A stretch of DNA of 64,000 bases from Bacillota bacterium (lineage in GTDB: Bacteria > Bacillota > JAAYKD01), in assembly GCA_036744005.1 (NCBI GenBank), contig DAINOJ010000012.1:180-64179 (forward strand), in the 5' to 3' direction. Of the stretch, positions 30,489 to 52,744 are shown one piece after another; position 1 is the first letter of the stretch; each line of letters starts with the position of its first letter. The notes below the pieces were generated by a model that was not told the DNA's origin, made no database searches, and was given only the letters and a program-made list of their open reading frames with translations. A program made the translations under genes and the position numbers.

Positions 30489-31174
30489 AACGCTCTGAAA
30501 TCAATCGGTCTATTGACCAAGCTCTAGCACTGTGTCAAGAGTACTGTATTCAACTGCCACCCTTTGCTTTCTTCACTCCTGCAGACTGGCTGCAAAAGAG
30601 CAAAGAATACGACGAGATTCGGGATTGCATGTTGGGTTGGGATATTACCGATTATGGATTAAACCGGTTCGAGGAGATTGGTTTAACCCTCATCACCTTG
30701 CGCAATGGCATAAGGAATTCTTTGGTTTACTCGAAACCTTATGCAGAAAAAATACTCATCAGCCAGGAAAATCAAGTGTGTCCCATGCATTTCCACTGGC
30801 ATAAATGCGAAGACATCATCCACCGCAATGGGGGAATCCTGATGATGCAATTGTATTCGGCCGATGCCCAAGATGGCTTATCAACCCAACCGGTGTCGGT
30901 TCAGCAGGATGGTCGTCGATATGAGGTTGCTGCAGGCACGATTTTGGAACTATTACCGGGGGAAAGCATTACCCTGCCAGCACGTTGTTATCATGCTTTT
31001 TGGGCCAAAGCCGGTCATGGACCTGTTCTCATTGGTGAAGTCTCCATGGTGAACGATGATCACAATGACAATTGTTTTCTGGAACCCATTGGACGTTTCC
31101 CCACAATTGAAGAGGATGAGCCTCCACGACACCTCCTTTGCACCGAATATCCGCGAAAGGATGGTTCTCGTTGA
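30485..31174 (+). CDS. Cupin-type sugar isomerase (D-lyxose/D-mannose ketol-isomerase-like)
   Basis: Metal-binding cupin motif MHFHWHKCEDIIHRNGG; length about 229 aa. The start overlaps the kinase stop (ATGA). Confidence 0.55.
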   Translation: MKRSEINRSIDQALALCQEYCIQLPPFAFFTPADWLQKSKEYDEIRDCMLGWDITDYGLNRFEEIGLTLITLRNGIRNSLVYSKPYAEKILISQENQVCPMHFHWHKCEDIIHRNGGILMMQLYSADAQDGLSTQPVSVQQDGRRYEVAAGTILELLPGESITLPARCYHAFWAKAGHGPVLIGEVSMVNDDHNDNCFLEPIGRFPTIEEDEPPRHLLCTEYPRKDGSR

Positions 31175-31869
31175 GTATCTTAAAACCTTCGTTACCTACG
31201 GATCTTCGCACCGTATTCACCTTGAGTGAGTCTTTGGAACGCTATCAGCGTGATGACGAGTTGGTGGAGAACTCCCTGTTCCTTCAAGAGAAGTGGCCAA
31301 TCAGACTTTATACCCCCATTTCGGTACAGGCTTGCCTGTTTCGTAAATGTGATTTCTCTTTGTCTCAATTACATAAAGCTTCTTTTCGTCACGTGGTCTT
31401 CGAACACTGCGATTTTTCAAATGTAATGTGGACAGAATGTCGGTATGAACGAGTCGAGTTTCGCCAATGTAAATTTATGGGTAGTGTCTTCAGTGCGGCA
31501 CTCTGGCGTCATGTATTGTTTGAAGAGATCTCTGGGGAATACTGTAGTTTATCTGGCGGTGACTTCGATAAAATACATTTCAAACAGTGTTCTGTGACCA
31601 ATAGTTCTTTCAGCGATTGTAAATGGAAGCAGGTTCAGTTCGATAAAACCGATTTGACATCATGCGAGTTTCTGCACACTTCCCTAAAAGGAGTGGATTT
31701 ACGGGATTGCCAGTTAAATGGGATACGTTTAGCGGGACCCGAATTGCGAGGTGCGATGGTTACCTCACTACAGGCGGTTGAATTATCTCGCTTTTTGGGT
31801 CTGGAGATCAACGATGACCCAATTATCTGCAAAGTCCGACACGATTTTCGAAGTAGAAACCCGTCATAA
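31171..31869 (+). CDS. Pentapeptide-repeat protein
   Basis: Tandem A(D/N)LxX-type pentapeptide repeats (CDFSN, CKFMG, SFSDC, LRDCQ and others). Start tentatively placed at TTG 31171 (RBS AAAGGATGG; TTGA overlap with the upstream stop). Confidence 0.65.
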   Translation: MSILKPSLPTDLRTVFTLSESLERYQRDDELVENSLFLQEKWPIRLYTPISVQACLFRKCDFSLSQLHKASFRHVVFEHCDFSNVMWTECRYERVEFRQCKFMGSVFSAALWRHVLFEEISGEYCSLSGGDFDKIHFKQCSVTNSSFSDCKWKQVQFDKTDLTSCEFLHTSLKGVDLRDCQLNGIRLAGPELRGAMVTSLQAVELSRFLGLEINDDPIICKVRHDFRSRNPS

Positions 31870-31933: not shown

Positions 31934-34849
31934 ATGAAGTTACGGAAAATGTGGCTCAACATCAATGGCGTCAACCGTATTTTTATCTGCAATCCGGAAA
32001 AGGATTCTTTAGCCGATGTTTTGCGGCGTATCGGTCTAACAGGCACCAAAATCGGATGCGGAACTGGGGTTTGCGGCTCCTGCTCTGTGATTCTCGATGG
32101 GGAAGTCATTCGTTCTTGTGTGCGAAAAATCAAAACGGTCAAAGAATACAGCAAAATTATCACCATTGAAGGAATCGGTACCCCTACCTATCAGCACCCC
32201 TTGCAAGTAGCATTCATGAATTGCGGTGCAGTCCAATGTGGTTTTTGTTCCCCAGGATTCATTGTCGCTGCTTATGCTCTCTTAGAAAAGAACAACAATC
32301 CCTCCCGTAACGAAGTACGTCAATGGTTCCAAAAGCATCGCAATATTTGCCGTTGCACCGGGTATAAGCAAATCGTCGACGCGGTCATGGCCGCTGCCAA
32401 AGTCGTTCGCGGTGAAGCTACCATCGATGAGATTACCTTCCAATTGCCGGAAGACAACGAATACTACGGCAAACCTCTTGTTCGCCCCAATGCTTTGGCT
32501 AAGGTAACCGGTACTGCCGATTATGGTGATGATCAGGAATTAAAAATGCCTGCGGAATCCTTACATGCCGTTATGGTACAACCCCGTGTGGCGCATCACG
32601 CTAAAATACTAAAAATAGATACAGAAGAAGCTTCCCAAATGCCCGGAGTCGTCAAAATCGTGACTCATAAAGAATTGAAAGAAGCCGGCGGCACCAATGT
32701 GATGGCGGAAGGTCAATTCCACGAAAGAACCACGGTTATGGTACCTAGCCGCAAAGTGTTATGTGAAGATCGAATTTATCGTTATGGCGATGCTGTTGCC
32801 GTTGTGGTGGCGGACACCAAAGATCATGCCCGTGCTGCTGCAGAAAAGGTAAAAGTAGAAATCGAACAACTTCCTGAATACTTGAGTTATTTGGAAGCCG
32901 TTATGCCCGATGCCATACGCATTCACGAAGATACCCCCAATATTTTCTGTGTTCAGCCCACTCTGAAAGGTGTAGGGTTGGAAGATCCCAACAAAGTAGC
33001 AGAAGTCATTGATGATTCTGTTTATAGTGTGGAGGGAAGTTTCCACTCTACCCGCGAACCCCATCTTTCTGTTGAAGGCGATACCATTCAGGCTTACTTT
33101 GATGAAGAGGATAATTTAACCTTCCAATGCAAATCCCAGGGTGTTTATTCCTCCTTAGGTCGTATTGGTGACTCTTTGGGCGTTCCCAAAGCCAAAATGC
33201 GCATCATTATGAACCCTACCGGTGGTTCATTTGGCTGGTCCACGAATGCCGGGGATTTGGTCTTAGCCGGTGCTGCCGCCGTTGTCACCAAAATGCCGGT
33301 TGCACTTTCCATGACCTATGAAGAGCATCATCATTACAGCGGGAAACGCTGCCCCTCTTATTCCAACGCTCGTTTGGCTTGCGATGCTGCCGGGAAAATC
33401 ACAGCAGCAGAGTTTGATTTTGGATACGACCATGGTGCTTATTCTTGGGGTGGAGACGACTTAATCACCAAACCGGCACGATTTGCTTTCTTCCCTTATA
33501 GCATTCCCAATGTAGCCGGATTATCAAGAATTGCCAATACCAACCATAACTATGGTACTGCATATCGTGCTTATGGCTCACCACAAGCATATACAATGGG
33601 CGAGGCCATGATGGATCTGCTTGCTGAAAAAGCAGGTATCGATCCGTTTGAGTTCCGTTGGAGAAACATTGCCAGAGAAGGCGAAACCAATATCAATAGC
33701 TATCCGTTCCGTCAATACCCCATGGAAAAAATCATGGAAACCATGAAACCTCATTACGATCGAGCTGTAGCCGAAGCGAAAGCTGCGACAACACCTGAAA
33801 AACGTCGAGGAGTCGGCCTTTCATGGGGTGGTTTTAACGTAACAGAAGGTGGTACCGATAAAGCGACAGTAGCCCTTGAGATTGCTCCAAATGGTATGTT
33901 CTACAAGTATGATACCTACCAAAACTTGGGACAGGGCGGAGACATCGGCTCTTTAATGCTGACTCTTGAAGCGTTAAAACCATTGAAGGTAAAGCCGGAC
34001 CAAATACGTCTGATCCAAAACGATACGAAGATCTGTCCGGATAGCGGTATGTCGGGTGCCAGCAGAACCCATTTCATGAGCGGTAACGCCACGAAAATTG
34101 CCGGAGAAAAACTCATGGATGCCATGAGAAAGCCCGATGGAACTTATCGAACCTATGAAGAAATGGTCGCCGAAGGGCTACCGACCAAGTATGAAGGGAC
34201 CTTCTCCAATACATCCATCCCCGGGCTATGTCGATTAGATCCCAACACGGGAATCGGTGATCCCACTCCGGCTTATACTTACATTTTAAATATGGCAGAA
34301 GTGGAAGTCGATACTGCTACTGGGAAGACAACTGTGCTTCGCTTTACTGCTGTTGACGATGTAGGTAAAATTGGCAACATTGATGCCGTAAACGGTCAGG
34401 CTTATGGCGGTATCTCTCATGCAATTGGTTTTGCCTTGAGCGAAAATTATGATGATGTCAAAAAGCATACCAATCCCTTGACCAGTGGAGTACCCTATAT
34501 TCTGGATATTCCCGATGAAATTGAAGTCATTCACTATGAACGTCCCGATGAAGCAGGTCCCTTTGGATCCTCTGGTGCTTCTGAGGCCTTCCAATCTTCT
34601 GGTCATGTTGCCGTATTGAATGCCATCCACAACGCTTGCGGTGTTCGTATTTACGAAATGCCCGCTACCCCAGAGAAGGTCAAAGCCGGTCTCGAAATTC
34701 TGGCTAAAGGCGGCAAAATTCTGCCAACCAAATACTTCCTTGGCTCTGATCTCTATGAAGAGCTAGAGAACATCAAAGCCAACCCTGTCAAAGTCGGGGC
34801 TGAAGATTACTTCGTGCCGTTGGGTACCGGAGCAGAAAAATTCTTCTAA
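31934..34849 (+). CDS. Xanthine dehydrogenase family molybdenum hydroxylase with fused N-terminal [2Fe-2S] domains and a molybdopterin-binding catalytic domain (no FAD domain)
   Basis: 971-aa ORF. N-terminal plant-type ferredoxin cluster motif CGTGVCGSCSV and second cluster motifs CGFCSPG..CRCTGY are followed by aldehyde-oxidase/XDH a/b hammerhead and Mo-cofactor-binding regions. RBS GGAGG is 7 nt upstream. Confidence 0.85.
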   Translation: MKLRKMWLNINGVNRIFICNPEKDSLADVLRRIGLTGTKIGCGTGVCGSCSVILDGEVIRSCVRKIKTVKEYSKIITIEGIGTPTYQHPLQVAFMNCGAVQCGFCSPGFIVAAYALLEKNNNPSRNEVRQWFQKHRNICRCTGYKQIVDAVMAAAKVVRGEATIDEITFQLPEDNEYYGKPLVRPNALAKVTGTADYGDDQELKMPAESLHAVMVQPRVAHHAKILKIDTEEASQMPGVVKIVTHKELKEAGGTNVMAEGQFHERTTVMVPSRKVLCEDRIYRYGDAVAVVVADTKDHARAAAEKVKVEIEQLPEYLSYLEAVMPDAIRIHEDTPNIFCVQPTLKGVGLEDPNKVAEVIDDSVYSVEGSFHSTREPHLSVEGDTIQAYFDEEDNLTFQCKSQGVYSSLGRIGDSLGVPKAKMRIIMNPTGGSFGWSTNAGDLVLAGAAAVVTKMPVALSMTYEEHHHYSGKRCPSYSNARLACDAAGKITAAEFDFGYDHGAYSWGGDDLITKPARFAFFPYSIPNVAGLSRIANTNHNYGTAYRAYGSPQAYTMGEAMMDLLAEKAGIDPFEFRWRNIAREGETNINSYPFRQYPMEKIMETMKPHYDRAVAEAKAATTPEKRRGVGLSWGGFNVTEGGTDKATVALEIAPNGMFYKYDTYQNLGQGGDIGSLMLTLEALKPLKVKPDQIRLIQNDTKICPDSGMSGASRTHFMSGNATKIAGEKLMDAMRKPDGTYRTYEEMVAEGLPTKYEGTFSNTSIPGLCRLDPNTGIGDPTPAYTYILNMAEVEVDTATGKTTVLRFTAVDDVGKIGNIDAVNGQAYGGISHAIGFALSENYDDVKKHTNPLTSGVPYILDIPDEIEVIHYERPDEAGPFGSSGASEAFQSSGHVAVLNAIHNACGVRIYEMPATPEKVKAGLEILAKGGKILPTKYFLGSDLYEELENIKANPVKVGAEDYFVPLGTGAEKFF

Positions 34850-34936
34850 AAACAAACATCAACCACCGTTGGGGAGGGGATGCTTTACCCACAATGGGCG
34901 AACATCTCCTCCCTCCCCCATATAAAGGAGGATACG

Positions 34937-37126
34937 ATGCGCGAATTTCAAGAAATTCTCAAAGATTGTTTACGTGACGAACCTCCTTTTTGTACATCGG
35001 TTTGTCCATTTGACTTAGATATTCGAGATTTTATCGTTAAGTTACAACGAGGTAGTTTCAACGGAGCATTTCGTTTGTATCAGAATACAGTGGGATTCCC
35101 TGGAATTGTTTCTAAAATTTGTCCCCATCCCTGTCATAACGCTTGTATTCGTAAACAAACCGATGAAACGATTGATTTGCAACGACTGGAACAAGCTGCT
35201 GTATCTTTTGCGAACAATACCACGCCAAACCGTTATTTCTTGCCGGCAAAAGGAAAGAAAATTGCCATTATTGGTGCAGGTCTGGGTGGTTTGGGAGCTG
35301 CTTTGCGTTTAACCGCCAGAAAATATGACGTTGAGATGTACGAAAAAAGCTCTCGACTTGGTGGAAGTCTCTGGAATCTGCTACCCCCTGAAGATTTTCT
35401 ACCCGATATTCAAAAACAATTTGAAAACGAGCAGTTCACCATTCACTTCAATACAGAGATAACTTCTTTCAATCAAATCTCTGCCGATGCCATATTGATT
35501 GCCACCGGTTCAAAGGGACCTACCTTTTCAGATCAACCGGGTGTGTTTCGGTGTGCAACCGGTCACCCTGTAGAAGCGCTTGCTTCAGGATTGGTTATGG
35601 CCGGTGCTATAGAAGGATTTTTGAAATCCGGAGTGATGCGTTTGCCGGAACCAAAACCACCCACTCGTTTGGTCATGGACCCACAGTTCATTCATCCCTT
35701 GCCGAGTACACTTTCACCCAATGGAACACTCAGCAAAGAGGAAGCTATTACAGAATCTCGAAGATGCCTAAAGTGTCAGTGTGATGCTTGTATACGCCAC
35801 TGTGACTTAATGAAGTTTTACGGGAAAGCTCCAAAGCGTATCGAAGAGGAAGTGGAGATCACCATTCATCCCGGCACATTAGATGGAAACGGAACCGTGG
35901 CGACACGACTCATCGCCACTTGTAATCATTGCGACGTTTGCAAGCTCGTTTGTCCTCAGGGCATCGATACCGGGGCGTTCTTGTTACAAAGTCACCGTGC
36001 CATGGAAGAAAAAGGAGCCATGCCTTGGGTCTTCCACGAGTTTTGGTTAAGAGATATGAACTTCTCCAATGGTGAGGAAGCTGCTGTTCGTTTTCAACCG
36101 CCAGGATACTCAGCCTCCCCTTGGATGTATGTACCCGGCTGCCGTTTAGGTGGCAGTGACCCGAATTATGTGTTACATAGTTATGAATACATGCTTCAGG
36201 AAGCCCCCAACACCGCGTTGTTGCTGAATTGTTGTGGTGCACCGGCTCTATGGGCAGGGCAGCAACCGGTTTTTGAACAGACATTGAATCAAATCCGTGC
36301 AGATTGGATCTCGTTTGGAAAACCCACTGCTGTTTTTGCTTGTAGTACGTGTCAAAGAATCTATGGAGATTATTTACCGGAGATTCCCGGGGTTTCCATT
36401 TTCGAGTGGATGAACGAGCGTCATTATACCCCACCCCTAAAGGAAAATCTTCCTGTATGTGTCTTTGATCCTTGTCAATCGGCGGGACACCCGGAAATAC
36501 AGCAAGCGGTTCGCGATTTGGTCCGTCGGAGTGGTCACAACATTGCTCAAGAATTGGATCTTCCTCTATGCTGCGGCTGGGGGGGGCAAGTTTCCATTGC
36601 AAATCCAAAATATTTTGAAGGCGTGGTTCGTAGTCGGAGTGCGGATAGTACTCTTCCCTATGTGACGTATTGCGCCAATTGCCGAGATGTATTTGCCTCT
36701 TCTGGTAAATCTGCCTTTCACATCTTTGACCTATTATTTAGATTAAACCATACCCCCGAATCCTCAGCCGAGTTGCGTGGCGCGCCCAGTCCCAGCTTAT
36801 CTCGGCAAAACCGACGTCAATTAAAAACGCAGCTGTATCAACGTTATTTTGGGGAGGAATGGAAGATGTCTCAACCTCAACTTCGCTTACTCATTCGGGA
36901 AGAACTTAAGGAGAAACTGAATCGTTCCATGATACTTATCGAAGATTTGGAATCCGTGGTGGCTTATTGCGAGAAGACCGATGCTAAAATTCAGCATTCC
37001 GATGGTAGCTTTTCCGGGTATTTAATGATTGGTCAAATGACGTTTTGGGTGCAGTATCGCCTTTGTGATCAGGGGTTCATCTTGGAAAATGCTTATTGTC
37101 ACCGGATGCAGATTGGAGAGTCTTAA
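34937..37126 (+). CDS. Multidomain oxidoreductase: GltD/DPD-like FAD-binding module, two 4Fe-4S ferredoxin motifs and two C-terminal CCG domains (HdrD/GlpC-like)
   Basis: N-terminal Fe-S region (CTSVCP...CPHPCHNAC). FAD dinucleotide fold (KIAIIGAGLGGLGAA). 4Fe-4S motifs (CLKCQCDACIRHC and CNHCDVCKLVCP). CCG motifs (LLLNCCGAPALW, LPLCCGWGGQ). Start at ATG 34937 with RBS GGAGG 5 nt upstream. Confidence 0.7.
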   Translation: MREFQEILKDCLRDEPPFCTSVCPFDLDIRDFIVKLQRGSFNGAFRLYQNTVGFPGIVSKICPHPCHNACIRKQTDETIDLQRLEQAAVSFANNTTPNRYFLPAKGKKIAIIGAGLGGLGAALRLTARKYDVEMYEKSSRLGGSLWNLLPPEDFLPDIQKQFENEQFTIHFNTEITSFNQISADAILIATGSKGPTFSDQPGVFRCATGHPVEALASGLVMAGAIEGFLKSGVMRLPEPKPPTRLVMDPQFIHPLPSTLSPNGTLSKEEAITESRRCLKCQCDACIRHCDLMKFYGKAPKRIEEEVEITIHPGTLDGNGTVATRLIATCNHCDVCKLVCPQGIDTGAFLLQSHRAMEEKGAMPWVFHEFWLRDMNFSNGEEAAVRFQPPGYSASPWMYVPGCRLGGSDPNYVLHSYEYMLQEAPNTALLLNCCGAPALWAGQQPVFEQTLNQIRADWISFGKPTAVFACSTCQRIYGDYLPEIPGVSIFEWMNERHYTPPLKENLPVCVFDPCQSAGHPEIQQAVRDLVRRSGHNIAQELDLPLCCGWGGQVSIANPKYFEGVVRSRSADSTLPYVTYCANCRDVFASSGKSAFHIFDLLFRLNHTPESSAELRGAPSPSLSRQNRRQLKTQLYQRYFGEEWKMSQPQLRLLIREELKEKLNRSMILIEDLESVVAYCEKTDAKIQHSDGSFSGYLMIGQMTFWVQYRLCDQGFILENAYCHRMQIGES

Positions 37127-37127
37127 A

Positions 37128-37331
37128 ATGGAACAGAAAACAGAAAAAGAACCCTTAATCTGCCATCGATGTCAGATGCCATTAATGGAAACGAAAACTT
37201 TTTTCAAGTATCTGGGTCACAGTTTTCATACCGATATCCCTACCTGTCCCAAATGTGGATTGGTTTATATTTCTGAAGCATTGGCGAAAGGACGCATGGC
37301 CCAGGTGGAACAGGAATTGGAGGACAAATAA
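37128..37331 (+). CDS. Small YgiT-type zinc-finger protein
   Basis: 67 aa with CHRC...17...CPKCGLVY, matching the MqsA-N-terminal/YgiT zinc ribbon pattern. RBS GGAGAG is 7 nt upstream. It begins 2 nt after the upstream stop. Confidence 0.5.
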   Translation: MEQKTEKEPLICHRCQMPLMETKTFFKYLGHSFHTDIPTCPKCGLVYISEALAKGRMAQVEQELEDK

Positions 37332-38626
37332 TGCCCGAGATACTGCGTCATACCTATAGCCTTTGTCCGGTATGTCAAAAAAAACTGGAAGCCGTTTATG
37401 TCCGTCGAGACGTTGCGGTATGCTTTGAATTAATTTGCCCAACACATGGCTCCTTTTCCACTCCGGTCTGGTATAATCGTGTCAGCGGAGCTGCCTGGAC
37501 AAATGTAGAGGACGAACTGACCGTTCCTCCACCCTGCCCGGATGCCTGTGGGTTATGCCCGGAACATCGCCAGGATACCTGTTGTGTCGTTTTGGAAATC
37601 ACCAAACGTTGCAACCTTACTTGTCGTTTCTGCTTTGCCGATGGAGGCAAAGGGGAGGATGTACCATTTGCCAACTTGCAACAAGCGTTTGCCGACATGG
37701 TGAAACAATCCAAAACTTTGGTACAGCTTTCGGGAGGAGAACCGACTCTGCGAGAGGATTTACCTCTAGTCATTGAAGCGGCAAAAAAAGCCGGCTTGCT
37801 GTATGTGCAACTCAACACCAACGGGTTGCGCTTAGCAGAAGATCCTGCTTACGCCATACGTTTGGCGAATGCGGGTTTATCTTTTGTCTTTTTGCAATTT
37901 GACGGTCTTTCTTCTTCGGTTTATGAGTCACTGAGAGGGCGCGACCTTCTCGAGTTAAAAAAACAGGCCATAGCCCATTGCAATGATGCTGGCTTAGGAG
38001 TCACCTTGGTGATGACAGTGGTTCCCGGTGTTAACGATCAGCAAATCGGTGATGTTTTACAGTTTGCTTGGGAACAATCTCCGGTCATTCGGGGTGTTAA
38101 CTTACAACCTGTTAGCTACTTTGGTCGCACTCCCAATTCCACCTCTCCTTTTGAACATCTTACCCTAGATACCCTAGCAGAAGAAATCGAAAAGCAAACT
38201 CACGGTGTTATTCCATCATCGAAACTTTTTCCAGCTCAGAATGATCATCCCTTATGCGGATTTCACGGAGACTTCGTGATCACATCAGAAGGTTTGCCGA
38301 AAGCGCTTTCGATGCCATCCAAAAAATGTACTTGTGGTAAAGGCTTAGTTTCTTCGGTTCCCAAACGCGAATTTTTGGCCAGAAGATGGCAAAGGAAACC
38401 TTCCATCTTTGACGGGAACCAAACACACCAAAGTCATGATTTGTTTGATTTGGAGTATTTTGCTCAACGAGTTCAGAGCCATGGTTTCACGATTACAGCA
38501 ATTTCGTTTCAGGACGCCGAAAATCTTGATTTGGAGCGCTTACAACGATGCCGTTTACATGTCTATGACCAAGGACGCATGATTCCTTTCTGTGCCTATT
38601 ATTATACCCCTCGGAGGTTGTTATGA
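37331..38626 (+). CDS. Radical SAM enzyme with an N-terminal zinc-ribbon/Cys-rich extension
   Basis: CX3CX2C motif RCNLTCRFC. MoaA/NifB-like core motifs (SGGEPTL, NTNGL). An N-terminal CPVC...CPTHG plus CPDACGLCPEH region; additional C-terminal cysteines. Confidence 0.8.
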   Translation: MPEILRHTYSLCPVCQKKLEAVYVRRDVAVCFELICPTHGSFSTPVWYNRVSGAAWTNVEDELTVPPPCPDACGLCPEHRQDTCCVVLEITKRCNLTCRFCFADGGKGEDVPFANLQQAFADMVKQSKTLVQLSGGEPTLREDLPLVIEAAKKAGLLYVQLNTNGLRLAEDPAYAIRLANAGLSFVFLQFDGLSSSVYESLRGRDLLELKKQAIAHCNDAGLGVTLVMTVVPGVNDQQIGDVLQFAWEQSPVIRGVNLQPVSYFGRTPNSTSPFEHLTLDTLAEEIEKQTHGVIPSSKLFPAQNDHPLCGFHGDFVITSEGLPKALSMPSKKCTCGKGLVSSVPKREFLARRWQRKPSIFDGNQTHQSHDLFDLEYFAQRVQSHGFTITAISFQDAENLDLERLQRCRLHVYDQGRMIPFCAYYYTPRRLL

Positions 38627-39243
38627 GTGTGCGCGAATCAACACCCGATTGTTTGAGACCGGGTGGTCTTACTCTAACTGAACTGGGTATTCTTCAATGT
38701 GGGTTTCACGAAGGAGCTACTTTGGCAGATATTGGTTGCGGAAACGGAATCACGGTTGAGTATTTACTACGAAAAGGATATATGGCATATGGCGTAGATT
38801 TGCATGCCAAATCTCCATACATACGAGGGGATGCCGGTCAATTGCCATTTGACAATGAATCCATGGATGGTTTGCTCTACGAGTGTAGCTTTTCCAAGAT
38901 GCAACACACCGATCAGGTTTTAGCGGAAGCTCGCCGTGTCTTAAGCAAGAAAGGAAAACTTTTGCTGAGTGATTTCTATGCACGCGGTGTTTCAGCCGAT
39001 TTTCAAGGGTTATTAGGTCGGGTTGAGAGCGCGGATGAGATTCAACAACGTTTTCGAGCAGCCGGATTTCGTCTTACGTATTGGACCGACGCCAGTCAGG
39101 ATGTACTGCAAACGTTTGGACAACTCATTTTGAACCACGGCTGCATAGAAACGATTCTCGGTGCGAACCGAGAACAAATGAAGGCGGCTAAGTGTGGGTA
39201 CTTTTTATCCATATGGGAGGTTGAGCATGTACTCGGGAATTGA
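38623..39243 (+). CDS. Class I SAM-dependent methyltransferase
   Basis: Motif I DIGCGNG and overall Methyltransf_11-like pattern. Its start overlaps the radical SAM gene stop. Confidence 0.75.
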   Translation: MSVRESTPDCLRPGGLTLTELGILQCGFHEGATLADIGCGNGITVEYLLRKGYMAYGVDLHAKSPYIRGDAGQLPFDNESMDGLLYECSFSKMQHTDQVLAEARRVLSKKGKLLLSDFYARGVSADFQGLLGRVESADEIQQRFRAAGFRLTYWTDASQDVLQTFGQLILNHGCIETILGANREQMKAAKCGYFLSIWEVEHVLGN

Positions 39244-40378
39244 AAACTGGATTCTGAAACGATGTGGCTTAGCCTCTTTTCAAGACCTAGAAGATTGGCA
39301 GCAGGATCAATTGGCACGACAAACAGACTATGCCAAGCGCTCCTTGTTTTATCGTAACGGGTTGAGAGGTTTTACTACATCCGACGATCTTCGTTCCAAC
39401 CCCTTACAGTTCCTATGTATACCTCCTAAAGAAGTATCCCGAATTACTACCTTACCCACTTCAGGTACCAGCGGCGTCTCCAAAAGAGTTTTTTTCTCAG
39501 AAGAAGACCTTCAACTGACCGTAGAGTATTTTCATGTCGGCATGCAAGAGCTCATGGCTCCACAACAAAAAGCAGCGATATTTATGCCGGGAGCAACACC
39601 TGGGAGTGTAGGTGATTTGTTAATTCAAGCTATTGAAGGCTTTGGAGGAGAAGCTGCCGCGTACGGGTTCATACGAAATCCTTATGATGCTCAAATTCAG
39701 GCCGCTGATGCCGACTGTTTATTGGGGCACCCCATACAACTATTGACCTTGTCCCGTATCGCTCCTCACTTACGTCCCAAATCGGTTTTATTGACCGGCG
39801 ATCCTGTCCCTGCTTGGCTAATAACCGAAATGGAACAAACTTGGAGTTGTCGTATCCACCCTCATTACGGTCTGACAGAAAGCGGCTTTGGTTTAGCCGT
39901 CCGCGGAAAAGATGGCTATGGCGAACAAATATGCCATCCGTTTATTCGATTAGATATTATGGATCCTCAAACCGGTACGCTTGTACCCGATGGCGAGTGG
40001 GGTGAAATCGTTTTATCTACATTAATGCGCCAAGCGATGCCACTACTTCATTATCGCACCGGGGATTGCGGTCGCTGGCTTCCCGATACCTATCCAAAAC
40101 GGCTTGATATCCGACAAAGTCGCATACAACAGCCACAGTTAGAGCGCAACTTCACCATTCACCATTTAGACCAAGCGGTCTTTTCGATAAAAGATGTTTT
40201 CTACTATACGGCAACGTTGAAAAAAGAGGGATTACTTCTTACCATTGACTCCCCAGCAGAGTATCACGATATTTCGGTGGCGTTGAAAAACGTATTACAC
40301 CTTTCTATTCCTTGGCACATTGAGAAAAAAAAGATGCTTTGTGAACCAGGGAAACGAAAGATTGCAATAGAAGAATAA
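39227..40378 (+). CDS. PaaK-like adenylate-forming enzyme (phenylacetate-CoA ligase / coenzyme F390 synthetase family)
   Basis: AMP-binding P-loop TSGTSGVSKRV. Start at ATG 39227 with RBS GGGAGG 6 nt upstream. Length is about 383 aa. Confidence 0.7.
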   Translation: MYSGIENWILKRCGLASFQDLEDWQQDQLARQTDYAKRSLFYRNGLRGFTTSDDLRSNPLQFLCIPPKEVSRITTLPTSGTSGVSKRVFFSEEDLQLTVEYFHVGMQELMAPQQKAAIFMPGATPGSVGDLLIQAIEGFGGEAAAYGFIRNPYDAQIQAADADCLLGHPIQLLTLSRIAPHLRPKSVLLTGDPVPAWLITEMEQTWSCRIHPHYGLTESGFGLAVRGKDGYGEQICHPFIRLDIMDPQTGTLVPDGEWGEIVLSTLMRQAMPLLHYRTGDCGRWLPDTYPKRLDIRQSRIQQPQLERNFTIHHLDQAVFSIKDVFYYTATLKKEGLLLTIDSPAEYHDISVALKNVLHLSIPWHIEKKKMLCEPGKRKIAIEE

Positions 40379-40390
40379 GGAGGAGAAATC

Positions 40391-40705
40391 ATGGAATTCA
40401 AAAACGCTACGGTTGTAGCAAAAGCGAATATCTACTTCGAGGGCAAAGTAACCAGTCGAACCATTTTTACCGCGGAAGGTGTGAAGAAAACTTTAGGAAT
40501 CTTCTTGCCCGGAGAATACCGTTTTCAGACGGGAGCCGAAGAGCTTATGGAGATTTTAGCAGGCAGAGTAGATATTCGTTTGTCCGGAGAACAAGTGTAT
40601 ACCCTCTATACTGCAGACACACACTTCAACGTTCCAGCGAATTCATTTTTTGACTTAAAAGTCTATGAAGTCACCGATTATTGCTGTACTTACTTGGAAG
40701 CATAA
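40391..40705 (+). CDS. ppnP: Pyrimidine/purine nucleoside phosphorylase PpnP (DUF1255 cupin)
   Basis: 104 aa with NIYFEGKV...GEYRF.T...E.M.I..G...DW..Y.AG..F.VP..S.F.L.V.E.T.YCC.Y pattern matching YaiE/PpnP. RBS GGAGG. Confidence 0.75.
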   Translation: MEFKNATVVAKANIYFEGKVTSRTIFTAEGVKKTLGIFLPGEYRFQTGAEELMEILAGRVDIRLSGEQVYTLYTADTHFNVPANSFFDLKVYEVTDYCCTYLEA

Positions 40706-40793
40706 CGGTCATCATGAACCCGGCAGACATCTGCCGGGCTCTTACAAGCAATCGTTATGTTTTCAAATACCATTCGAAGAAAGGAGACCTTCT

Positions 40794-41759
40794 ATGAGAA
40801 CCGGAGCTGTTATTGTTGCCGCCGGCTTGTCTTCCCGAATGAAGTCCTTTAAACCTCTGCTTCAGCTAGCTGGATCCACGGTCATCCGTACTGCCATTGA
40901 AACCTTGGTTGCAGCCAATGTTTCTCCGATTATCGTTGTAACAGGCCGAGATGCAGATTTATTGCAGCGACATTTGGTGAACCTTCCGGTACAATGCATA
41001 TATAATAAAGATTATGCTACAACAGATATGTTTTTCTCTGCGAAGCTAGGTATGAAGCAAATCCGCACCCTTTGTGATCGATTTTTCTTCTTACCGGTCG
41101 ACGTTCCTCTGTTCTCCAAACGAAGTTTATTGACGATGATGGGCTACTTTGACTATTCTCGGTCCGAAATATTGGTTCCCTCTTATAAAGGACAGGAAGG
41201 TCATCCGGTCCTAATGGACGCTATGCAGATTGATGAGTTGCTAAAAGATTCTGGAGAACAAGGTCTTAAGGGCGCTTTGGAACGGTTAACCAGCCATAAA
41301 GAAGTATTGGAGTTACCGGATGCCGGGACGATAATGGATGCCGATAAACCGGAAGAGTACCAACAATTGAAGCGCTATGCTGCCAATATGGCGCAGGCAG
41401 ATCCGTTAACATTGCAATTGGATGTGACGATTTTACGGAAAGAACCGTTTTTTAACAAAACATTTGCGCGTCTCCTCCGTGCAGTGGAACGAACTCAGTC
41501 CATTCGGCAAGCTTGTCTTCTGCAGCATATCTCTTATTCCAGTGGTTGGAAGCAAATAAAAATGGCGGAAAGCCAGTTAGGCTTTCGTTTGGTGGATAGT
41601 CAGCAGGGTGGACAAAAAGGCGGTCAAACACACTTAACCGAACAAGGATCGGAGTTTTTGAACACATACACCTCTTATCATCTTGAATTAGAACGATTAG
41701 GCGAAACCCTTTTCAGGGATAGATTTCAACAATTTCTGGAGTTAGAGGAAGCAAAGTAA
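40794..41759 (+). CDS. MocA-like molybdenum-cofactor cytidylyltransferase fused to a C-terminal ModE-type winged-helix HTH domain
   Basis: N-terminal MobA/MocA NTP-transferase motif (GAVIVAAGLSSRMKSFKPLL). The C-terminal region matches the ModE N-terminal DNA-binding domain (ISYSSGWKQIKMAESQLGFRLVDSQQGGQKGGQTHLTEQG vs ISYKSAW...GGKGGGGAVLT). Start at ATG 40794 with RBS AAGGAG. Confidence 0.7.
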   Translation: MRTGAVIVAAGLSSRMKSFKPLLQLAGSTVIRTAIETLVAANVSPIIVVTGRDADLLQRHLVNLPVQCIYNKDYATTDMFFSAKLGMKQIRTLCDRFFFLPVDVPLFSKRSLLTMMGYFDYSRSEILVPSYKGQEGHPVLMDAMQIDELLKDSGEQGLKGALERLTSHKEVLELPDAGTIMDADKPEEYQQLKRYAANMAQADPLTLQLDVTILRKEPFFNKTFARLLRAVERTQSIRQACLLQHISYSSGWKQIKMAESQLGFRLVDSQQGGQKGGQTHLTEQGSEFLNTYTSYHLELERLGETLFRDRFQQFLELEEAK

Positions 41760-41772
41760 TGGAGGAGGACGC

Positions 41773-42864
41773 ATGATACAACATCTCTTCTTACAAGGTC
41801 CTTCGGGGATTGGAAAATCCACCGCGTTGCTTCGTGCTTTACAACAAAGTGCTCTTCCCGTCGGTGGTTTCTTGACCCAACGATTGTTCCGCCAGGGAAG
41901 ATTATACGGATATGCTATGATTCCTGCGGAACAAGCAACTCGTGTGTATGATGATGCCACATACGAAAATCCATCTTGTTTTTTGAAAGCGGAAGCCGGT
42001 CAATTAACCTTTGACTCAACCCGATTCTTGACCGACTTTCTGAGCTTCACTTCTCATGGCTCCATATTGCTGTTGGATGAAATTGGCGGAGCGGAGTTGA
42101 TGATACCGGAAATCCGTCAAGCAATTCAATTGGTATTGGAAAAGCCCATCCCTATCTTAGGTGTATGGAAATCTCGGGAAAACCTACTTCACATGATACA
42201 TCACGGAAAAGCTCCTATTGAATTGTTGTCTTATCATCAAGAAATGGAACGACTACTATCTTCTCAAAAACAAACCTTACTGTTAGATGGTATACCAAAT
42301 GATGCAGAGTTATTGCGGTTCATAAGAAGTAATGGCCTTAGCAAAGACTTACCTGGGCGGTCCTTTTGCATGGAGCGATTATCCAATTGCTCAGAAGCCA
42401 TTCGCAAGCATTGTCTACTGGTCGCCAAAACAACAGAAGCCCTTTGCTTTGCCTTCTCTGCTAAGGATCCGGAAATGCTTCTTCAGGCGGCGCTACTCCA
42501 CGATGTCGAGCGCCACAGTCCTCATCATGATCAGAAATTAGCCCAAGAAATGGTCGAAGCCGGATACATTAGGTTAGCTTCATGTATTCGACAGCATATG
42601 CATCTACAAGAGGAGTTCTATCATTGCGACGAAGCATTGCTTTGGCTAGCCGATAAATGCTGCTTGGAAGACCAACTTGTACACCCGAAAATTCGCTTTG
42701 AAGAAAGTATCCTACGATATGGGCCGACAGACCGCATAAAAAAGAATCTAAGGGCTTTACAATCCTTTGCACTTTCGGATCAATGGGATCCGAAGAAATT
42801 ATTCCTTCAAGGAGGTTCCTATGAAAACAATCTTTTCCGCCTTACTGAAGACGCTTGCAGTTGA
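41773..42864 (+). CDS. P-loop NTPase (THEP1-like) fused to an HD-domain phosphohydrolase
   Basis: Walker A LQGPSGIGKST and Walker B LLLDEIG. The C-terminal HD motif is LLHDVERH, with a further His/Asp. RBS GGAGGAGG. Confidence 0.65.
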   Translation: MIQHLFLQGPSGIGKSTALLRALQQSALPVGGFLTQRLFRQGRLYGYAMIPAEQATRVYDDATYENPSCFLKAEAGQLTFDSTRFLTDFLSFTSHGSILLLDEIGGAELMIPEIRQAIQLVLEKPIPILGVWKSRENLLHMIHHGKAPIELLSYHQEMERLLSSQKQTLLLDGIPNDAELLRFIRSNGLSKDLPGRSFCMERLSNCSEAIRKHCLLVAKTTEALCFAFSAKDPEMLLQAALLHDVERHSPHHDQKLAQEMVEAGYIRLASCIRQHMHLQEEFYHCDEALLWLADKCCLEDQLVHPKIRFEESILRYGPTDRIKKNLRALQSFALSDQWDPKKLFLQGGSYENNLFRLTEDACS

Positions 42865-43822
42865 AGATGCTGTGTTGGTTACCATTGTCGCAGGCTCTGG
42901 TTCTACTCCCCGCGGTGCAGGTGCAGCGATGGTAGTGAAAAAGGAAGGGCGCGTTACAGGTACCATAGGTGGTGGTGCTGTGGAATACAAGTCTCAGCAA
43001 TTGGCCATAGAACTTTTGCTGCAAAAATCGCATGGACAAAAGGAATTTCTCCTGACTCCCAATCAAGTCGAAGACCTTGGCATGGTTTGTGGCGGAGATG
43101 TTCGAGTGTATTTTCGCTTTTTTTCAAAAGACAATATCTCTGAGAAACTTTTTATTGAAACCGTACTACAACGCTTTCATAAAGATGAAGACAGTTGGTT
43201 TCTAATGGATCTTCCACACAATCTTTTGGGTTTATATTCTGTTTCAGAAGGGTTTCAGGGATTCACGATTCCTGAAGAGCAACTGAAAGATCTTCTGCGC
43301 TTCAAAGCAGTAGAAAAAAGTGGCATCTATGCTCATCCTTTGAAATCAAGTGGCAAAGTAGTGGTCTTTGGCGGGGGGCATGTTGCACAAGAGTTGATTC
43401 CAATTCTTACTCAGGTGCATTTTACGTGTTATGTCTATGACGACCGACCTGACTTTGTTACGGAATCTTTGTTTCCTCAAGCAGCCGCACGAATCTTGGG
43501 CTCATTTGAGCAAATAGATCAATATGTTGACTTACAGGAGTGTGATTATGCCGTCGTGATGACTCGTGGTCACTCGTATGATTACATTGTTCAAAAACAG
43601 CTACATCGTCGTCCCTTAGCTTACTTGGGTATCATAGGAAGTCGTAAGAAAATGGCTACCGTCTTTGAACGTCTGAGAGAAGATGGCATCTCACAAGACC
43701 AACTCGCTACCGTGTATACCCCCATTGGACTACCGATAAAAGCAGAAACACCCGCGGAAATCGCTGTATCCATTGCTGCCGAAATGATTCGTGTACGGGC
43801 AGAACGGAAAGAACGATCATGA
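42821..43822 (+). CDS. XdhC/CoxI family molybdenum-hydroxylase cofactor-insertion accessory protein
   Basis: XdhC N-terminal (VTIVAGSGSTPRGAGAAMVV) and Rossmann-like (VVFGGGHVAQEL) segments. Start at ATG 42821 with RBS GGAGG 6 nt upstream. Confidence 0.8.
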   Translation: MKTIFSALLKTLAVEDAVLVTIVAGSGSTPRGAGAAMVVKKEGRVTGTIGGGAVEYKSQQLAIELLLQKSHGQKEFLLTPNQVEDLGMVCGGDVRVYFRFFSKDNISEKLFIETVLQRFHKDEDSWFLMDLPHNLLGLYSVSEGFQGFTIPEEQLKDLLRFKAVEKSGIYAHPLKSSGKVVVFGGGHVAQELIPILTQVHFTCYVYDDRPDFVTESLFPQAAARILGSFEQIDQYVDLQECDYAVVMTRGHSYDYIVQKQLHRRPLAYLGIIGSRKKMATVFERLREDGISQDQLATVYTPIGLPIKAETPAEIAVSIAAEMIRVRAERKERS

Positions 43823-44841
43823 CCAACCATCGAAAATCTTTATGGTTGTTACTATCCTTTACACTTTTATTGTTCGCCTTGATCTTATTGTCCTTTTTAC
43901 TGGGTCGCTATCCGATTTCTCCCATGGAGTTATTCCGCACAGTTGGAGAGCGCATACTACGCACAAACCAATCCTTGAATCGTCCCGTGACAGCGACCGA
44001 AACCGTTCTATGGAACATTCGTTTACCTCGTGTGTTAGCCGCTTGTTTTGTCGGTGCGTGTCTTTCGGCGGCAGGGGCTGCTTATCAAGGCGTCTTTCAA
44101 AACCCTATGGCTTCTCCTGATATTCTTGGTGCAACCGCCGGAGCTGCCTTTGGTGCAGCATTTGCCATCCTCATGGACTTTAGTCAAACCGGTATTGTCT
44201 TATCTGCCTTCTCCTTTAGTATCGTTGCTGTTGCATTGGTTTGGATGGTAGGGCAACGAGCCAGAGGGAGTCGTGTCTTAGGATTGATTTTATCGGGTAT
44301 CATGATTGGTTCTTTGTTCTCTGCAGGGACATCCTTTATCAAACTGGTTGCAGATCCTCAGGACCAGTTGCCGGCTATTACATATTGGCTCATTGGTAGT
44401 CTTGCAGGTGTTCAGCAAACCGATGTGATGTTTGTAAGTCCGATCATGATCCTTGGTTTACTGACTTTGCTGTTAGTTCGTTGGCGAATCAATTTACTAA
44501 CCCTGGGCGACGAACAGGCTCGTGCTTTGGGTGTCAATGCCCAAAGATTACGGTTGGTGGTGATCCTTTCTTCCACTTTAATCACCGCTTCTGCTATATC
44601 GATTAGTGGGATGATTGGCTGGGTTGGTTTGGTGATACCTCATTTATCTCGACGGTTAGTTGGGAGTAATTATCGTTACTTAATGCCCTTATCTATGATT
44701 TTTGGAGCAGCCTTTCTTTTAGCGGTCGACAATGTATCACGCACACTCATGACGACAGAAATCCCCATAGGAATTCTGACTGCCGTGATTGGTGCACCCT
44801 TCTTTCTTTTCCTAATGACACAAAAGGAGGGAACGATGTGA
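43819..44841 (+). CDS. FecCD-family ABC transporter permease (metal-chelate/cobalamin type)
   Basis: 340-aa polytopic membrane protein with the FecCD signature region. Its ATG overlaps the XdhC stop (ATGA). Confidence 0.85.
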   Translation: MTNHRKSLWLLLSFTLLLFALILLSFLLGRYPISPMELFRTVGERILRTNQSLNRPVTATETVLWNIRLPRVLAACFVGACLSAAGAAYQGVFQNPMASPDILGATAGAAFGAAFAILMDFSQTGIVLSAFSFSIVAVALVWMVGQRARGSRVLGLILSGIMIGSLFSAGTSFIKLVADPQDQLPAITYWLIGSLAGVQQTDVMFVSPIMILGLLTLLLVRWRINLLTLGDEQARALGVNAQRLRLVVILSSTLITASAISISGMIGWVGLVIPHLSRRLVGSNYRYLMPLSMIFGAAFLLAVDNVSRTLMTTEIPIGILTAVIGAPFFLFLMTQKEGTM

Positions 44842-45623
44842 GTATTCTTGTCAAACATCTATCTTTTTCATATCACTCTCATCCTGTTCTGAACGATATC
44901 TCCTTTCATGTAAACACCGGAGAAATCCTAGCATTATTGGGCCCCAATGGGGTTGGGAAAAGCACTCTATTTCACTGCATCCTTGGCATACAACCAGATT
45001 ATTCGGGCTCTATATGGATTCATCATCAAGAAGCCAAGCGATTGTCGGCAAAAGCCTTAGCATCACAGATCGCGTATATACCACAAATACAGAAAACAGC
45101 TTTTCATTACAGCGTCTTGGATATGGTTCTGATGGGTACTACCGCTCAGTTGCAGTTGTTTCAGCAGCCTGGACCCTTGGAACTGCAACGAGCACGGGTT
45201 GCCCTAGAACGCTTTCGTATCTCACATTTAGCTCATCGCGAGTTCGATCGACTGAGTGGTGGAGAATGCCAGCTAACACTCATTGCTAGAGCGGTCGCTC
45301 AAGGGGCAAAGATTCTTCTACTGGATGAACCCACAGCCAGCTTAGATTATGGTAATTCCCATCGAGTGATGGAAGAGATCTATCAATTGCGTGATGAAGG
45401 GTATACCATTTTATTCTCTACACATGACCCGAATCAAGCACTTACCTATTCCAATTCGATTTTAGCTTTACATGAGGGAGAAGTTGCTGCCTTTGGCCTG
45501 ACAGAGCAAGTTTTGCAGGCAGATCTCATGGAAAAGCTCTATCAAATTTCCGTCTCATTTGAACAAATCGGCAATATACAGAAGAAAATCTGTATTCCGT
45601 TGCCGCGAAAGGAAGTATTTTAA
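44838..45623 (+). CDS. ABC transporter ATP-binding protein (FepC/BtuD type)
   Basis: Walker A GPNGVGKST, ABC signature LSGGE, Walker B LLLDEP. GTG start overlapping the permease stop. Confidence 0.85.
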   Translation: MSILVKHLSFSYHSHPVLNDISFHVNTGEILALLGPNGVGKSTLFHCILGIQPDYSGSIWIHHQEAKRLSAKALASQIAYIPQIQKTAFHYSVLDMVLMGTTAQLQLFQQPGPLELQRARVALERFRISHLAHREFDRLSGGECQLTLIARAVAQGAKILLLDEPTASLDYGNSHRVMEEIYQLRDEGYTILFSTHDPNQALTYSNSILALHEGEVAAFGLTEQVLQADLMEKLYQISVSFEQIGNIQKKICIPLPRKEVF

Positions 45624-45624
45624 A

Positions 45625-46671
45625 TTGAAAAAACTACTTGTACTCTTTCTAGTCCTCGCTTTGTTTATGAGTGGTTGTAATACCACAGCTCCTGAGGTTC
45701 TAAAACCCCTTCCAACTACCCAGACCTTTACCGATTCGAGCGGTCGAAGTGTTGAGCTTCCTTTAGAGGTTACACGAATTGCAGCATCCGGGTCCATGGC
45801 TCAAATGTTTTTATTTGCGCTTTGTCCAGAATATTTGGTTGGTCTTGCTTCTCCTTGGAGCCAGGAAGCAGAAAAATACATTCAAACGGAGTATTATAAA
45901 CTGCCTGTACTAGGGCAATTTTATGGAACCGGCACACTAAACATGGAGGAAGTTGTCAAAACAGCACCTCAAGTGATTATTGATGTAGGGGAAGCCAAGA
46001 AAAGCATTGTTGAAGATATGGATTCCATTATGAAACAAGTGAATATTCCCACCATCCACATTGAAGCAACAACGGAGACTACTGCTGATGCCTATCGCCT
46101 ATTAGGAAAACTACTCAATCGCGAAGAAAAAGCGGAAAAGCTGGCTAGTTATATTGAAAAGACATTACAGCAAGTGAATAAGACCGTTAGTACCGTCGAG
46201 AAATCCTCTGTACTTTATCTCTTGGGCAATAATGGGCTGAATGTTTTAGCAAAGACATCTTTCCATGCAGAAGTTATTGACCATGTTTCCAATAACGCCG
46301 CAATCATAGAACAACCTTCTTTTAAAGGTTCGGGTAACGAAGTGGACTTTGAACAATTACTGCTCTGGGATGCCGATGTGCTCTTAGTTGCTCCCGATAG
46401 TATTTACGATGAAATTATCCAAGATGCAAGTTGGCAACAACTTCGTGCAGTCCAGAATGGACAACTATATCGGGTTCCCAGTGGACCTTATAATTGGATT
46501 ACCAATCCTCCTTCTGTCAATATTTATCTTGGTATGTTATGGCTAACCGATTTGCTTTACCCAGAAAATGTGGAGTATGACTTATTCAAAGAAGTCACCG
46601 AATATTATCGCCTTTTCTATGGTCATGAACTAACTTTAGAGGAGTTTACATCATTAACTGCACATCCATAG
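45625..46671 (+). CDS. TroA/BtuF-class periplasmic-binding lipoprotein of the ABC importer
   Basis: TTG start giving MKKLLVLFLVLALFMSGC with lipobox. RBS AAAGGAAG is 9 nt upstream. Class III SBP size and pattern. Confidence 0.7.
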   Translation: MKKLLVLFLVLALFMSGCNTTAPEVLKPLPTTQTFTDSSGRSVELPLEVTRIAASGSMAQMFLFALCPEYLVGLASPWSQEAEKYIQTEYYKLPVLGQFYGTGTLNMEEVVKTAPQVIIDVGEAKKSIVEDMDSIMKQVNIPTIHIEATTETTADAYRLLGKLLNREEKAEKLASYIEKTLQQVNKTVSTVEKSSVLYLLGNNGLNVLAKTSFHAEVIDHVSNNAAIIEQPSFKGSGNEVDFEQLLLWDADVLLVAPDSIYDEIIQDASWQQLRAVQNGQLYRVPSGPYNWITNPPSVNIYLGMLWLTDLLYPENVEYDLFKEVTEYYRLFYGHELTLEEFTSLTAHP

Positions 46672-50423: not shown

Positions 50424-50441
50424 TTGCTAAACTCCCCCTTT

Positions 50442-52394
<1,953 letters not shown>

Positions 52395-52687: not shown

Positions 52688-52744
52688 AAATTGTGCATAA
52701 GTTGTTCCTTGCAATAAGAAAGCTCCGCAATAACGGAGCTTTCT

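Follow-up and report, generated by a model that had tools for sequence, protein, structure and literature searches.

An invariant C-terminal tail on the zinc ribbon of the conserved TrsS cassette of anaerobic molybdenum aldehyde oxidoreductases as a possible substrate of its radical SAM protein, methyltransferase and PaaK-like ligase

A stretch of 64,000 nucleotides from a Bacillota bacterium (GTDB lineage Bacteria; Bacillota; JAAYKD01; GenBank assembly GCA_036744005.1, contig DAINOJ010000012.1, positions 180 to 64,179 of the forward strand), called the window in the following, contains four adjacent + strand genes that were analyzed here. They encode a zinc ribbon protein of 67 aa (D1557, DVU_1557 family; 37128-37331), a TrsS-like radical S-adenosylmethionine (SAM) protein of 431 aa (TrsS; 37331-38626), a class I SAM methyltransferase of 206 aa with a DIGCGNG SAM motif (MT, DVU_1556 family; 38623-39243) and a PaaK-like adenylating enzyme, the P-loop of which reads TSGTSG (LIG, DVU_1553 family; 39227-40378 with an ATG start, or from the alternative GTG at 39194). 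On the basis of profile matches and gene order, the four genes were shown to be the accessory core of the conserved TrsS/DVU_1551-1559 cassette, which accompanies MOP-type molybdenum aldehyde oxidoreductases (AORs) with molybdopterin cytosine dinucleotide (MCD) in strict anaerobes. The cassette of the window is thus a slightly divergent member of a bioinformatically defined cassette and not a new kind of system. New observations are the terminal Leu-Glu-Asp-Lys (LEDK) of D1557, fusions of D1557 with the FeS-flavoprotein D1558 (DVU_1558 family), probable MT-LIG fusions, the presence of one enzyme set for two AOR sets, and relatives of crystallized AORs that are accompanied by the cassette. From the combined results we infer that TrsS, MT and LIG are maturation enzymes and not catabolic enzymes, and the favoured reading, to which we give a probability of roughly one in three, is that they form a maturation pathway that would act on the Glu-Asp-Lys tail of D1557.

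The D1557 protein contains the CxxC pairs CHRC and CPKC and ends with ELEDK-COOH. An x-E-(D/E)-K end directly followed by the stop codon was found in all 56 homologs at the related loci described below. A word-based search with the 67 aa protein retrieved only eight proteins and was replaced by an exhaustive profile search that covered 1.84 billion representatives. It yielded 299 matches, and the C-terminal ends were read in the best 150 of them. The last four residues were LEDK in 100 cases, LEEK in 11, MEDK in eight and another x-E-x-K in about 12, while the remaining endings mostly came from matches that stopped before the domain end or from long proteins with several matches. Essentially every one of these 150 proteins that ended in the D1557 domain had the terminal lysine. 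The domain was always situated at the extreme C-terminus, also in fusion proteins. Ten longer matches were scanned, and all ten turned out to be D1558::D1557 fusions or fragments thereof. Fusions were found in three entries of the profile search (P0214, P0153, P0258) and at three loci (L089, L084, L085), and at two of the latter (L084, L085) and in Nitratidesulfovibrio termitidis the fused gene was part of a full cassette. Many D1558::D1557 entries of the database (profile search matches P0150, P0184, P0222, P0248, P0261, P0269) started within D1558 at model positions 388-691, which may reflect contig ends or an unrecognized in-frame UGA; the NCBI model bears the short name "diclust_near_Sec".

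In the window the LEDK codons (GGAGGACAAATAATG) are at the same time the Shine-Dalgarno sequence of the TrsS gene. A conservation of these codons merely as a ribosome-binding site was ruled out, because the synonymous codons and the stop codons varied and the tail was also retained in front of other genes. Across the loci GAG was used 37 times and GAA 19 times, GAC 28 and GAT 27 times, AAA 40 and AAG 16 times, and all three stop codons occurred. This free variation revealed that the constraint on the tail acts on the protein and not on a downstream ribosome-binding site. As judged from its fusions and endings, D1557 is a detachable C-terminal module of D1558, the last residue of which must stay last. 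It is predicted to have a metal site of four cysteines and a C-terminal helix that ends in the terminal L-E-D-K-COOH. A natural D1558::D1557 fusion was modelled with AlphaFold2 (AF2) with a mean predicted local distance difference test (pLDDT) of 79.9 and a predicted template modelling score (pTM) of 0.71. No relative of D1557 was retrieved by a search of the PDB. For D1558, fold matches were NfnB/StnC for the N-terminus and EtfD and HdrB for the pair of CCG domains.

The four open reading frames (ORFs) are tightly coupled. The TAA of the zinc ribbon gene and the ATG of the TrsS gene overlap by 1 nt (TAATG; GACAAATAATGCCC), and the overlaps are 4 nt between TrsS and MT and 17 nt between MT and LIG. 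An earlier interpretation, made from the sequence alone (in the following, the sequence-only reading), had described these gene calls, motifs and couplings, and had placed the module in a molybdenum hydroxylase operon; both were verified. The AOR gene, of the xanthine dehydrogenase (XDH) family, lies upstream at 31934-34849 as the first gene of the operon, it is followed by the gene for D1558 at 34880-37126 (both + strand), and genes for maturation of the molybdenum cofactor (Moco), namely MocA, HD and XdhC genes, lie downstream. D1558 has a GltD/NfnB-like N-terminus, two [4Fe-4S] clusters and two CCG motifs.

The curated NCBI models gave scores above the cut-offs for AOR (NF045668, 1151 bits, cut-off 1100), D1558 (NF045663, 680.7 bits, cut-off 530), D1557 (NF045645, 86.5 bits, cut-off 60; both CxxC pairs and the x-E-(D/E)-K end are present) and MT (NF045667, 173.2 bits, cut-off 155). 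LIG reached 285.7 bits over aa 16-299 with NF045666, which is below the cut-off of 300, and its gene lies in the expected synteny. XdhC reached 277.7 bits with NF045664 (cut-off 350), and the match to the DVU_1551 model NF045665 (cut-off 315) was split across two genes of the window. The TrsS gene is accompanied by genes of the DVU_1557, DVU_1556, DVU_1553 and AOR families, and the gene order of the window is the majority order. Pfam domains were DUF7479 in the zinc ribbon (92 bits versus 27), Zn_ribbon_HMPTM and Radical_SAM in TrsS, Methyltransf_11 in MT and AMP-binding in LIG. The zinc ribbon had been regarded as YgiT-type in the sequence-only reading. This name had to be replaced, because the score with the YgiT/MqsA antitoxin model TIGR03830 was only 18.6 bits (cut-off 61.8), the protein of 67 aa has no helix-turn-helix (HTH) and no toxin gene was called nearby.

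A 2026 review listed the "Radical SAM selenoprotein TrsS, NF045646" and credited it to Haft and Tolstoy (2025). Already in 2017, a transcriptome paper on Clostridium ljungdahlii had described genes for an AOR, a CCG-domain oxidoreductase, a four-cysteine protein and a C_GCAxxG_C_C protein, and had annotated a neighboring SAM methyltransferase, a radical SAM protein and a putative adenylyltransferase. Together with the NCBIfam models, the two papers show that the module had already been catalogued. Therefore, the view that no characterized pathway with this composition exists was correct only with regard to function, for which no experimental study was found in the literature, and it has to be amended by the catalogued families NF045645, NF045646, NF045667 and NF045666.

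The conservation of the cassette was analyzed with one genome per species, which resulted in 80 TrsS loci, and the other genes were searched for by tblastn with the proteins of the window. Although many contigs ended within the locus, D1558 was found at 58 loci, MT at 57, D1557 at 56, LIG at 55 and AOR at 49. The order AOR, FeS-flavoprotein, zinc ribbon, radical SAM protein, MT, LIG was present at about 55 of the 80 loci, and the full order was observed in six phyla, i.e., Bacillota, Acidobacteriota (Holophaga), Synergistota, Bacteroidota, Spirochaetota (Rectinemataceae) and Desulfobacterota. A fortuitous gene order in this genome only, which had been considered as a possible refutation in the sequence-only reading, could thus be dismissed. 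Direct adjacency on the same strand was found for D1558 and D1557 at 52 loci, for TrsS and MT at 45, for D1557 and TrsS at 44, for AOR and D1558 at 41, for MT and LIG at 38, and for D1557 and LIG at six. Loci with a rearranged order retained the gene set. Clustering of the ORFs at the 80 loci revealed C_GCAxxG_C_C proteins (31 loci), CobW-like GTPases (eight) and NifX-like proteins (eight); a C_GCAxxG_C_C gene is absent from the window. The Desulfovibrio cassettes also contain genes for MoCF_biosynth, XdhC, MocA-HD and histidine phosphatase proteins. The hosts of the cassette include the model or applied anaerobes Desulfovibrio vulgaris and C. ljungdahlii as well as many gut Lachnospiraceae, Oscillospiraceae, Synergistaceae and Bacteroidales.

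Compared with the nearest genome (L001, 4571-7486), the AOR of the window shows 95% identity, and the adjacent genes are 50-72% identical. Across phyla, the identities were 70-77% for AOR and 34-52% for the accessory genes. The higher identity of AOR points either to a very strong constraint or to a gene that was recombined or transferred.

In C. ljungdahlii two sets of AOR, D1558, D1557, C_GCAxxG and XdhC genes exist, with a single MT and a single radical SAM gene in cluster 1 and a single "adenylyltransferase" gene in cluster 2, which was equated with LIG solely by its annotation. The distribution of the three genes over the paralogous clusters indicates that one of each serves two AOR sets.

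The TrsS protein has an N-terminal region with CPxC...CxxHG knuckles (CPVC at aa 12-15, CPTHG at aa 36-40), a CPxxCGxCxxH auxiliary-cluster motif (CPDACGLCPEH at aa 69-79), the CX3CX2C core (CNLTCRFC at aa 94-101) and a short C-terminal domain. It was aligned with the PDB entry 7TOL over aa 6-308 and 381-425 (E = 1.6e-67). The AF2 model (pLDDT 85.6, pTM 0.89) had a template modelling (TM) score of 0.79 to 7TOM, and according to this model TrsS is a full-length structural homolog of the tetraether lipid synthase Tes/GDGT-MAS. Membership in the Tes family itself was rejected, as the score with NF045702 was 295.8 bits versus a cut-off of 450 and the alignment to 7TOL was partial. MoaA membership was also rejected (TIGR02668, 89.5 bits versus 325; TIGR02666, 79.5 versus 284). 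The automatic JGI label "7,8-dihydro-6-hydroxymethylpterin dimethyltransferase" is a transferred name only.

The TrsS family is characterized by the motifs PSxCDHPxCGFHG, NRxFxxRRWxR and FTxTAMxFQD...CSLHV...PFC, and relatives have variable cysteine-rich inserts, e.g., (CCCG)n, between the second and the third of them. Long inserts of low complexity, placed between NRxFxxRRWxR and the C-terminal domain, were found at four loci (L067, about 1160-1410; L068, about 11050-11350; L016; L074), with E-x-CCCG-x repeats and a (DC)n run; these inserts resemble a metal- or sulfur-binding tether. The window and its two closest relatives, L001 and L002, have an Asn or Ile at the position of Cys304, and the CC(C) motif that is usual elsewhere is replaced by C-x-C. 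All three also lack a C_GCAxxG_C_C gene in the vicinity. The two losses could be coupled, a pattern seen at three loci only. In-frame TGA codons for selenocysteine occurred in none of the TrsS genes at the 80 loci, and a pattern search of metagenomes for TGA at the position of Cys304 yielded one chance match only.

PDB matches of MT were generic (MitM and MccD). LIG has the conserved motifs of a P-loop (SG..KR), a YGxTE-like sequence, TGD and a C-terminal lysine, and its match to the PaaK structures 4R1L and 2Y27 was limited to about 100 residues (aa ~196-302). It belongs neither to the PaaK family (TIGR02155, 63.6 bits versus 646, aligned at aa 201-300 only) nor to the F390 synthetase family FtsA (TIGR03335, 35.7 bits versus 458.7). 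At eight loci (L004, L012, L016, L028, L042, L045, L058, L075) MT and LIG were contained in one ORF of 591-822 aa. The ORF caller picks the longest ORF and the call of a fusion depends on length alone; hence these are probable MT-LIG fusions.

The AOR of the window matched the PDB entries 1DGJ and 1SIJ/1VLB over aa 8-920 with an E-value of about 1e-238, and it was assigned to the MOP type by its match to NF045668 and its full-length similarity to the enzymes of Desulfovibrio gigas and Desulfovibrio desulfuricans. The full cassette was found in a metagenome-assembled genome of Desulfovibrio that encodes an AOR 89% identical to the 1DGJ enzyme, and also in N. termitidis. The crystal structures 1VLB and 1DGJ (to 1.28 Å) contain ordinary MCD and no reported covalent modification. 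A stable tailoring of Moco or AOR by the cassette is disfavoured, because AORs of cassette-bearing Desulfovibrio lineages crystallize with ordinary MCD.

If the three enzymes act on the tail of D1557, LIG would adenylate a carboxylate. This could be the alpha-carboxylate at the terminus, or it could belong to an acyl group which LIG would then place on the epsilon-amine of the lysine. TrsS would functionalize an unactivated sp3 carbon with the 5'-deoxyadenosyl radical and the auxiliary cluster, and would form a C-C or C-S bond like its homolog Tes. MT would cap a heteroatom (O, N or S). In this way the terminal arm would acquire a protein-bound group and would work between AOR and the HdrB-like CCG clusters of D1558. 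It is tempting to go one step further and to speculate, by analogy with known carrier systems, that the terminal Glu-Asp-Lys might carry a new protein-derived prosthetic group built by LIG, TrsS and MT on an arm that couples aldehyde oxidation at molybdenum to D1558, but this extended version is rather unlikely. The maturation of the tail would best explain the terminal residue, the adjacency of D1557 with TrsS and with LIG, the fusions, and the use of one enzyme set for two AOR sets.

Several results weigh against an action on the tail. The link between the enzymes and the tail is inferred, and the results contain no physical tie of TrsS, MT or LIG to it. We know of no PaaK-type ANL enzyme that acts on a protein terminus. 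The tail forms the end of a helix in the AF2 model of the fusion, its last residues have a pLDDT of about 60, and an obviously floppy arm is not seen. TrsS of the window scored 475.2 bits with NF045646, 15 below the cut-off of 490 (the next family was Tes with 295.8), and it has Asn304 (38240-38245, aa 304-305) where about 90% of the relatives retain a cysteine in PSxCDHPxCGFHG. Five TrsS-like genes are solitary or lie beside NifX-like or CobW-like genes outside of an AOR context. At five Oscillospiraceae loci (L029, L035, L037, L040, L046) an AOR-D1558-D1557-LIG group faces a TrsS-MT-MocA-XdhC group, and at two loci (L026, L038) the order is MocA-C_GCAxxG-TrsS-MT-LIG, with no AOR nearby and D1557 absent within 10 kb. 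In the last two arrangements TrsS and MT are associated with Moco genes, which speaks for a transient maturation of Moco or AOR, in which the three enzymes would act on the pterin cofactor, a precursor or the assembly of the molybdenum site and leave no trace, e.g., via a protecting or activating group on molybdopterin or MCD before the XdhC-mediated insertion. The additional Moco genes in the Desulfovibrio cassettes, the CobW-like and NifX-like neighbors (eight loci each), the resemblance of the radical SAM core to MoaA (89.5 bits) and the fact that the two AOR sets of C. ljungdahlii share a single radical SAM protein, MT and ligase are also in favor of it; moreover, HMPTM/MJ0619, the founder of the family of the N-terminal domain of TrsS, acts on a pterin. 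However, TrsS adjoins D1557 (44 loci) far more often than MocA or XdhC, the MOP-type AOR structures from cassette-bearing lineages show the standard cofactor with no reported covalent modification, and the terminal L-E-D-K is left unexplained. Taken together, a transient action on the cofactor is the main rival of an action on the tail, albeit on balance unlikely. The tailoring of a cofactor, one of two roles envisaged in the sequence-only reading, therefore survives in its transient form, for which the TrsS-MT-MocA-XdhC sub-operons speak, and not in its stable form.

Two further explanations do not involve a modification of either the tail or the cofactor. The three enzymes might synthesize a low-molecular-weight thiol, disulfide or other redox cosubstrate for the CCG domains of D1558, and D1557 would then be a docking or electron-transfer module of the rubredoxin or zinc ribbon type. 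The HdrB/EtfD-like CCG pair and the GltD/NfnB-like N-terminus of D1558, the putative redox proteins of the C_GCAxxG_C_C type at 31 of the 80 loci, the cysteine-rich inserts in TrsS, which suggest sulfur or metal handling, and the NCBI designation of D1557 as a "redox protein" would fit to this idea. It seems improbable nevertheless, because genes for the biosynthesis of a carbon skeleton did not travel with the cassette at the inspected loci, and a docking module would need neither an invariant last residue nor its terminal position in the fusion proteins. Aldehydes and carboxylic acids are interconverted by AORs, and LIG could also form an acyl- or aryl-CoA or an acyl-AMP from the acid that AOR produces or consumes, while the radical SAM protein and MT would modify a small aromatic or heterocyclic substrate; this was the other role envisaged in the sequence-only reading. 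No solved structure is closer to LIG than PaaK, the cassette of C. ljungdahlii was induced on syngas or H2/CO2, and Aor of D. vulgaris has been assigned to ethanol metabolism. Yet the similarity to PaaK comprises about 100 residues and 63.6 bits versus 646, and genes for ring reduction, beta-oxidation, CoA transfer or dedicated substrate transport were not conserved at the inspected loci or in the main ORF clusters. The probable MT-LIG fusions, the separation of the three enzymes in C. ljungdahlii, where they are divided over the paralogous clusters, and the Moco maturation genes as the constant partners are likewise difficult to reconcile with a catabolic route, which is thus poorly supported and very doubtful. 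The maturation of the D1557 tail therefore remains the favoured reading.

The cassette of the window is part of one + strand gene string at 31934-46671, a 14-gene operon with AOR at its head. LIG is followed by the gene for a PpnP nucleoside phosphorylase (40391-40705; Pfam Ppnp, 115 bits), which adjoins the cassette at eight related loci, before or after AOR, and which may be linked to the cytidine nucleotide of MCD. The next genes encode a MocA-like cytidylyltransferase fused to a ModE/LysR-type HTH (40794-41759, the ORF opens at 40665; 197 bits with the N-terminal part of NF045665, 127.6 with TIGR03310, HTH_1), an NTPase with an HD phosphohydrolase (41773-42864; 74 bits with NF045665 positions 197-339, NTPase_1) and the XdhC-family AOR maturation factor (42821-43822; 157.3 bits with TIGR02964). 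The single DVU_1551-family protein of Desulfovibrio (MocA plus HD) thus corresponds to two genes, MocA-HTH and THEP1-like NTPase-HD, whereas a histidine phosphatase is found elsewhere, either as a fusion partner of MocA or encoded behind it. Joined to xdhC via 4-nt overlaps are the + strand genes for permease, ATPase and lipoprotein binding protein of a FecCD-type ABC importer (43819-46671; FecCD, 301 bits; ABC_tran; weak IsdE/FhuD-type matches of the binding protein), and the ATPase family was also present at 12 related loci. Importers of the BtuCD/FecCD type include the MolABC molybdate/tungstate system of Haemophilus, and by analogy the importer could be the metal supply of the operon.

An Rfam scan of the whole window revealed no riboswitch, including the Moco riboswitch, and only two tRNAs (15692-15844, - strand), and scans for promoters and terminators stayed at background level. 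A gene for a pentapeptide-repeat protein (31138-31869) lies directly upstream of the AOR gene. The genes gyrA, gyrB, recF, dnaN and dnaA are on the - strand at 47976-56877, yidC, jag, mnmE and mnmG are on the + strand at 58146-63277, and near 56-58 kb a negative GC skew becomes positive. The region 47976-63277 looks like the chromosomal origin, which would place the AOR operon, transcribed in the direction of the likely oriC, at a distance of about 10-25 kb from it.

The MOP enzyme has been the structural paradigm of molybdenum hydroxylases for 30 years, and we know of no study of its dedicated partners. The tail, the fusions and the shared enzyme set turn "function unknown" into one question that can be tested cheaply. 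Should the tail prove to be modified, the Tes/HMPTM branch of radical SAM proteins would gain a new activity, and anaerobes would possess a new protein-derived cofactor, a modification in the style of lipoyl or diphthamide groups.

A comparison with the TrsS/DVU_1551-1559 cassette of D. vulgaris revealed that all components are matched in the window and that the order AOR, D1558, D1557, TrsS, MT, LIG, MocA, HD, XdhC is the commonest one. In contrast to that cassette, TrsS, LIG and XdhC are slightly below the curated cut-offs, TrsS has an Asn where most relatives have a Cys, DVU_1551 is split, a C_GCAxxG_C_C gene is missing, and PpnP and the ABC importer are added. TrsS shares the CPxC/CxxHG knuckles, the auxiliary-cluster motif, the radical SAM core and the last 45 residues with Tes/GDGT-MAS. 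It is, however, about 95 residues shorter (431 aa versus 526 aa of the crystallized Tes chain; the alignment skips Tes residues ~338-448), it has the specific motifs CDHPxCGFHG and NRxFxxRRWxR, and lipid genes are not nearby. With the pterin C-methylase HMPTM/MJ0619 it has the N-terminal Zn_ribbon_HMPTM domain in common, and the TrsS gene has that of a pterin enzyme as a neighbor. LIG belongs to the ANL superfamily, and it has the P-loop, the TGD and YGxTE-like motifs and the C-terminal lysine in common with PaaK (2Y27, 4R1L) and with the PaaK-like amide- or ester-forming ligases AjiA1 and BagE/FevW. It differs from PaaK in that the alignment is confined to about 100 residues, its score amounts to one tenth of the cut-off of the PaaK model, and a probable fusion with MT exists in several species.

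The closest parallels to a maturation of the D1557 tail are found in lipoyl-lysine (LplA/LipA/E3), diphthamide (Dph2/Dph5/Dph6), the LysW carrier and mycofactocin (MftA/MftC). A sequence relationship to these systems does not exist, and the PaaK-like type of ligase and the E-D-K tail are without precedent among them. The similarity is an analogy of logic. Such carrier systems have an invariant terminal or lysine site on a small domain or peptide, on which an adenylating enzyme, a radical SAM protein and sometimes a methyltransferase act, and which an oxidoreductase of the disulfide or flavin type then uses.

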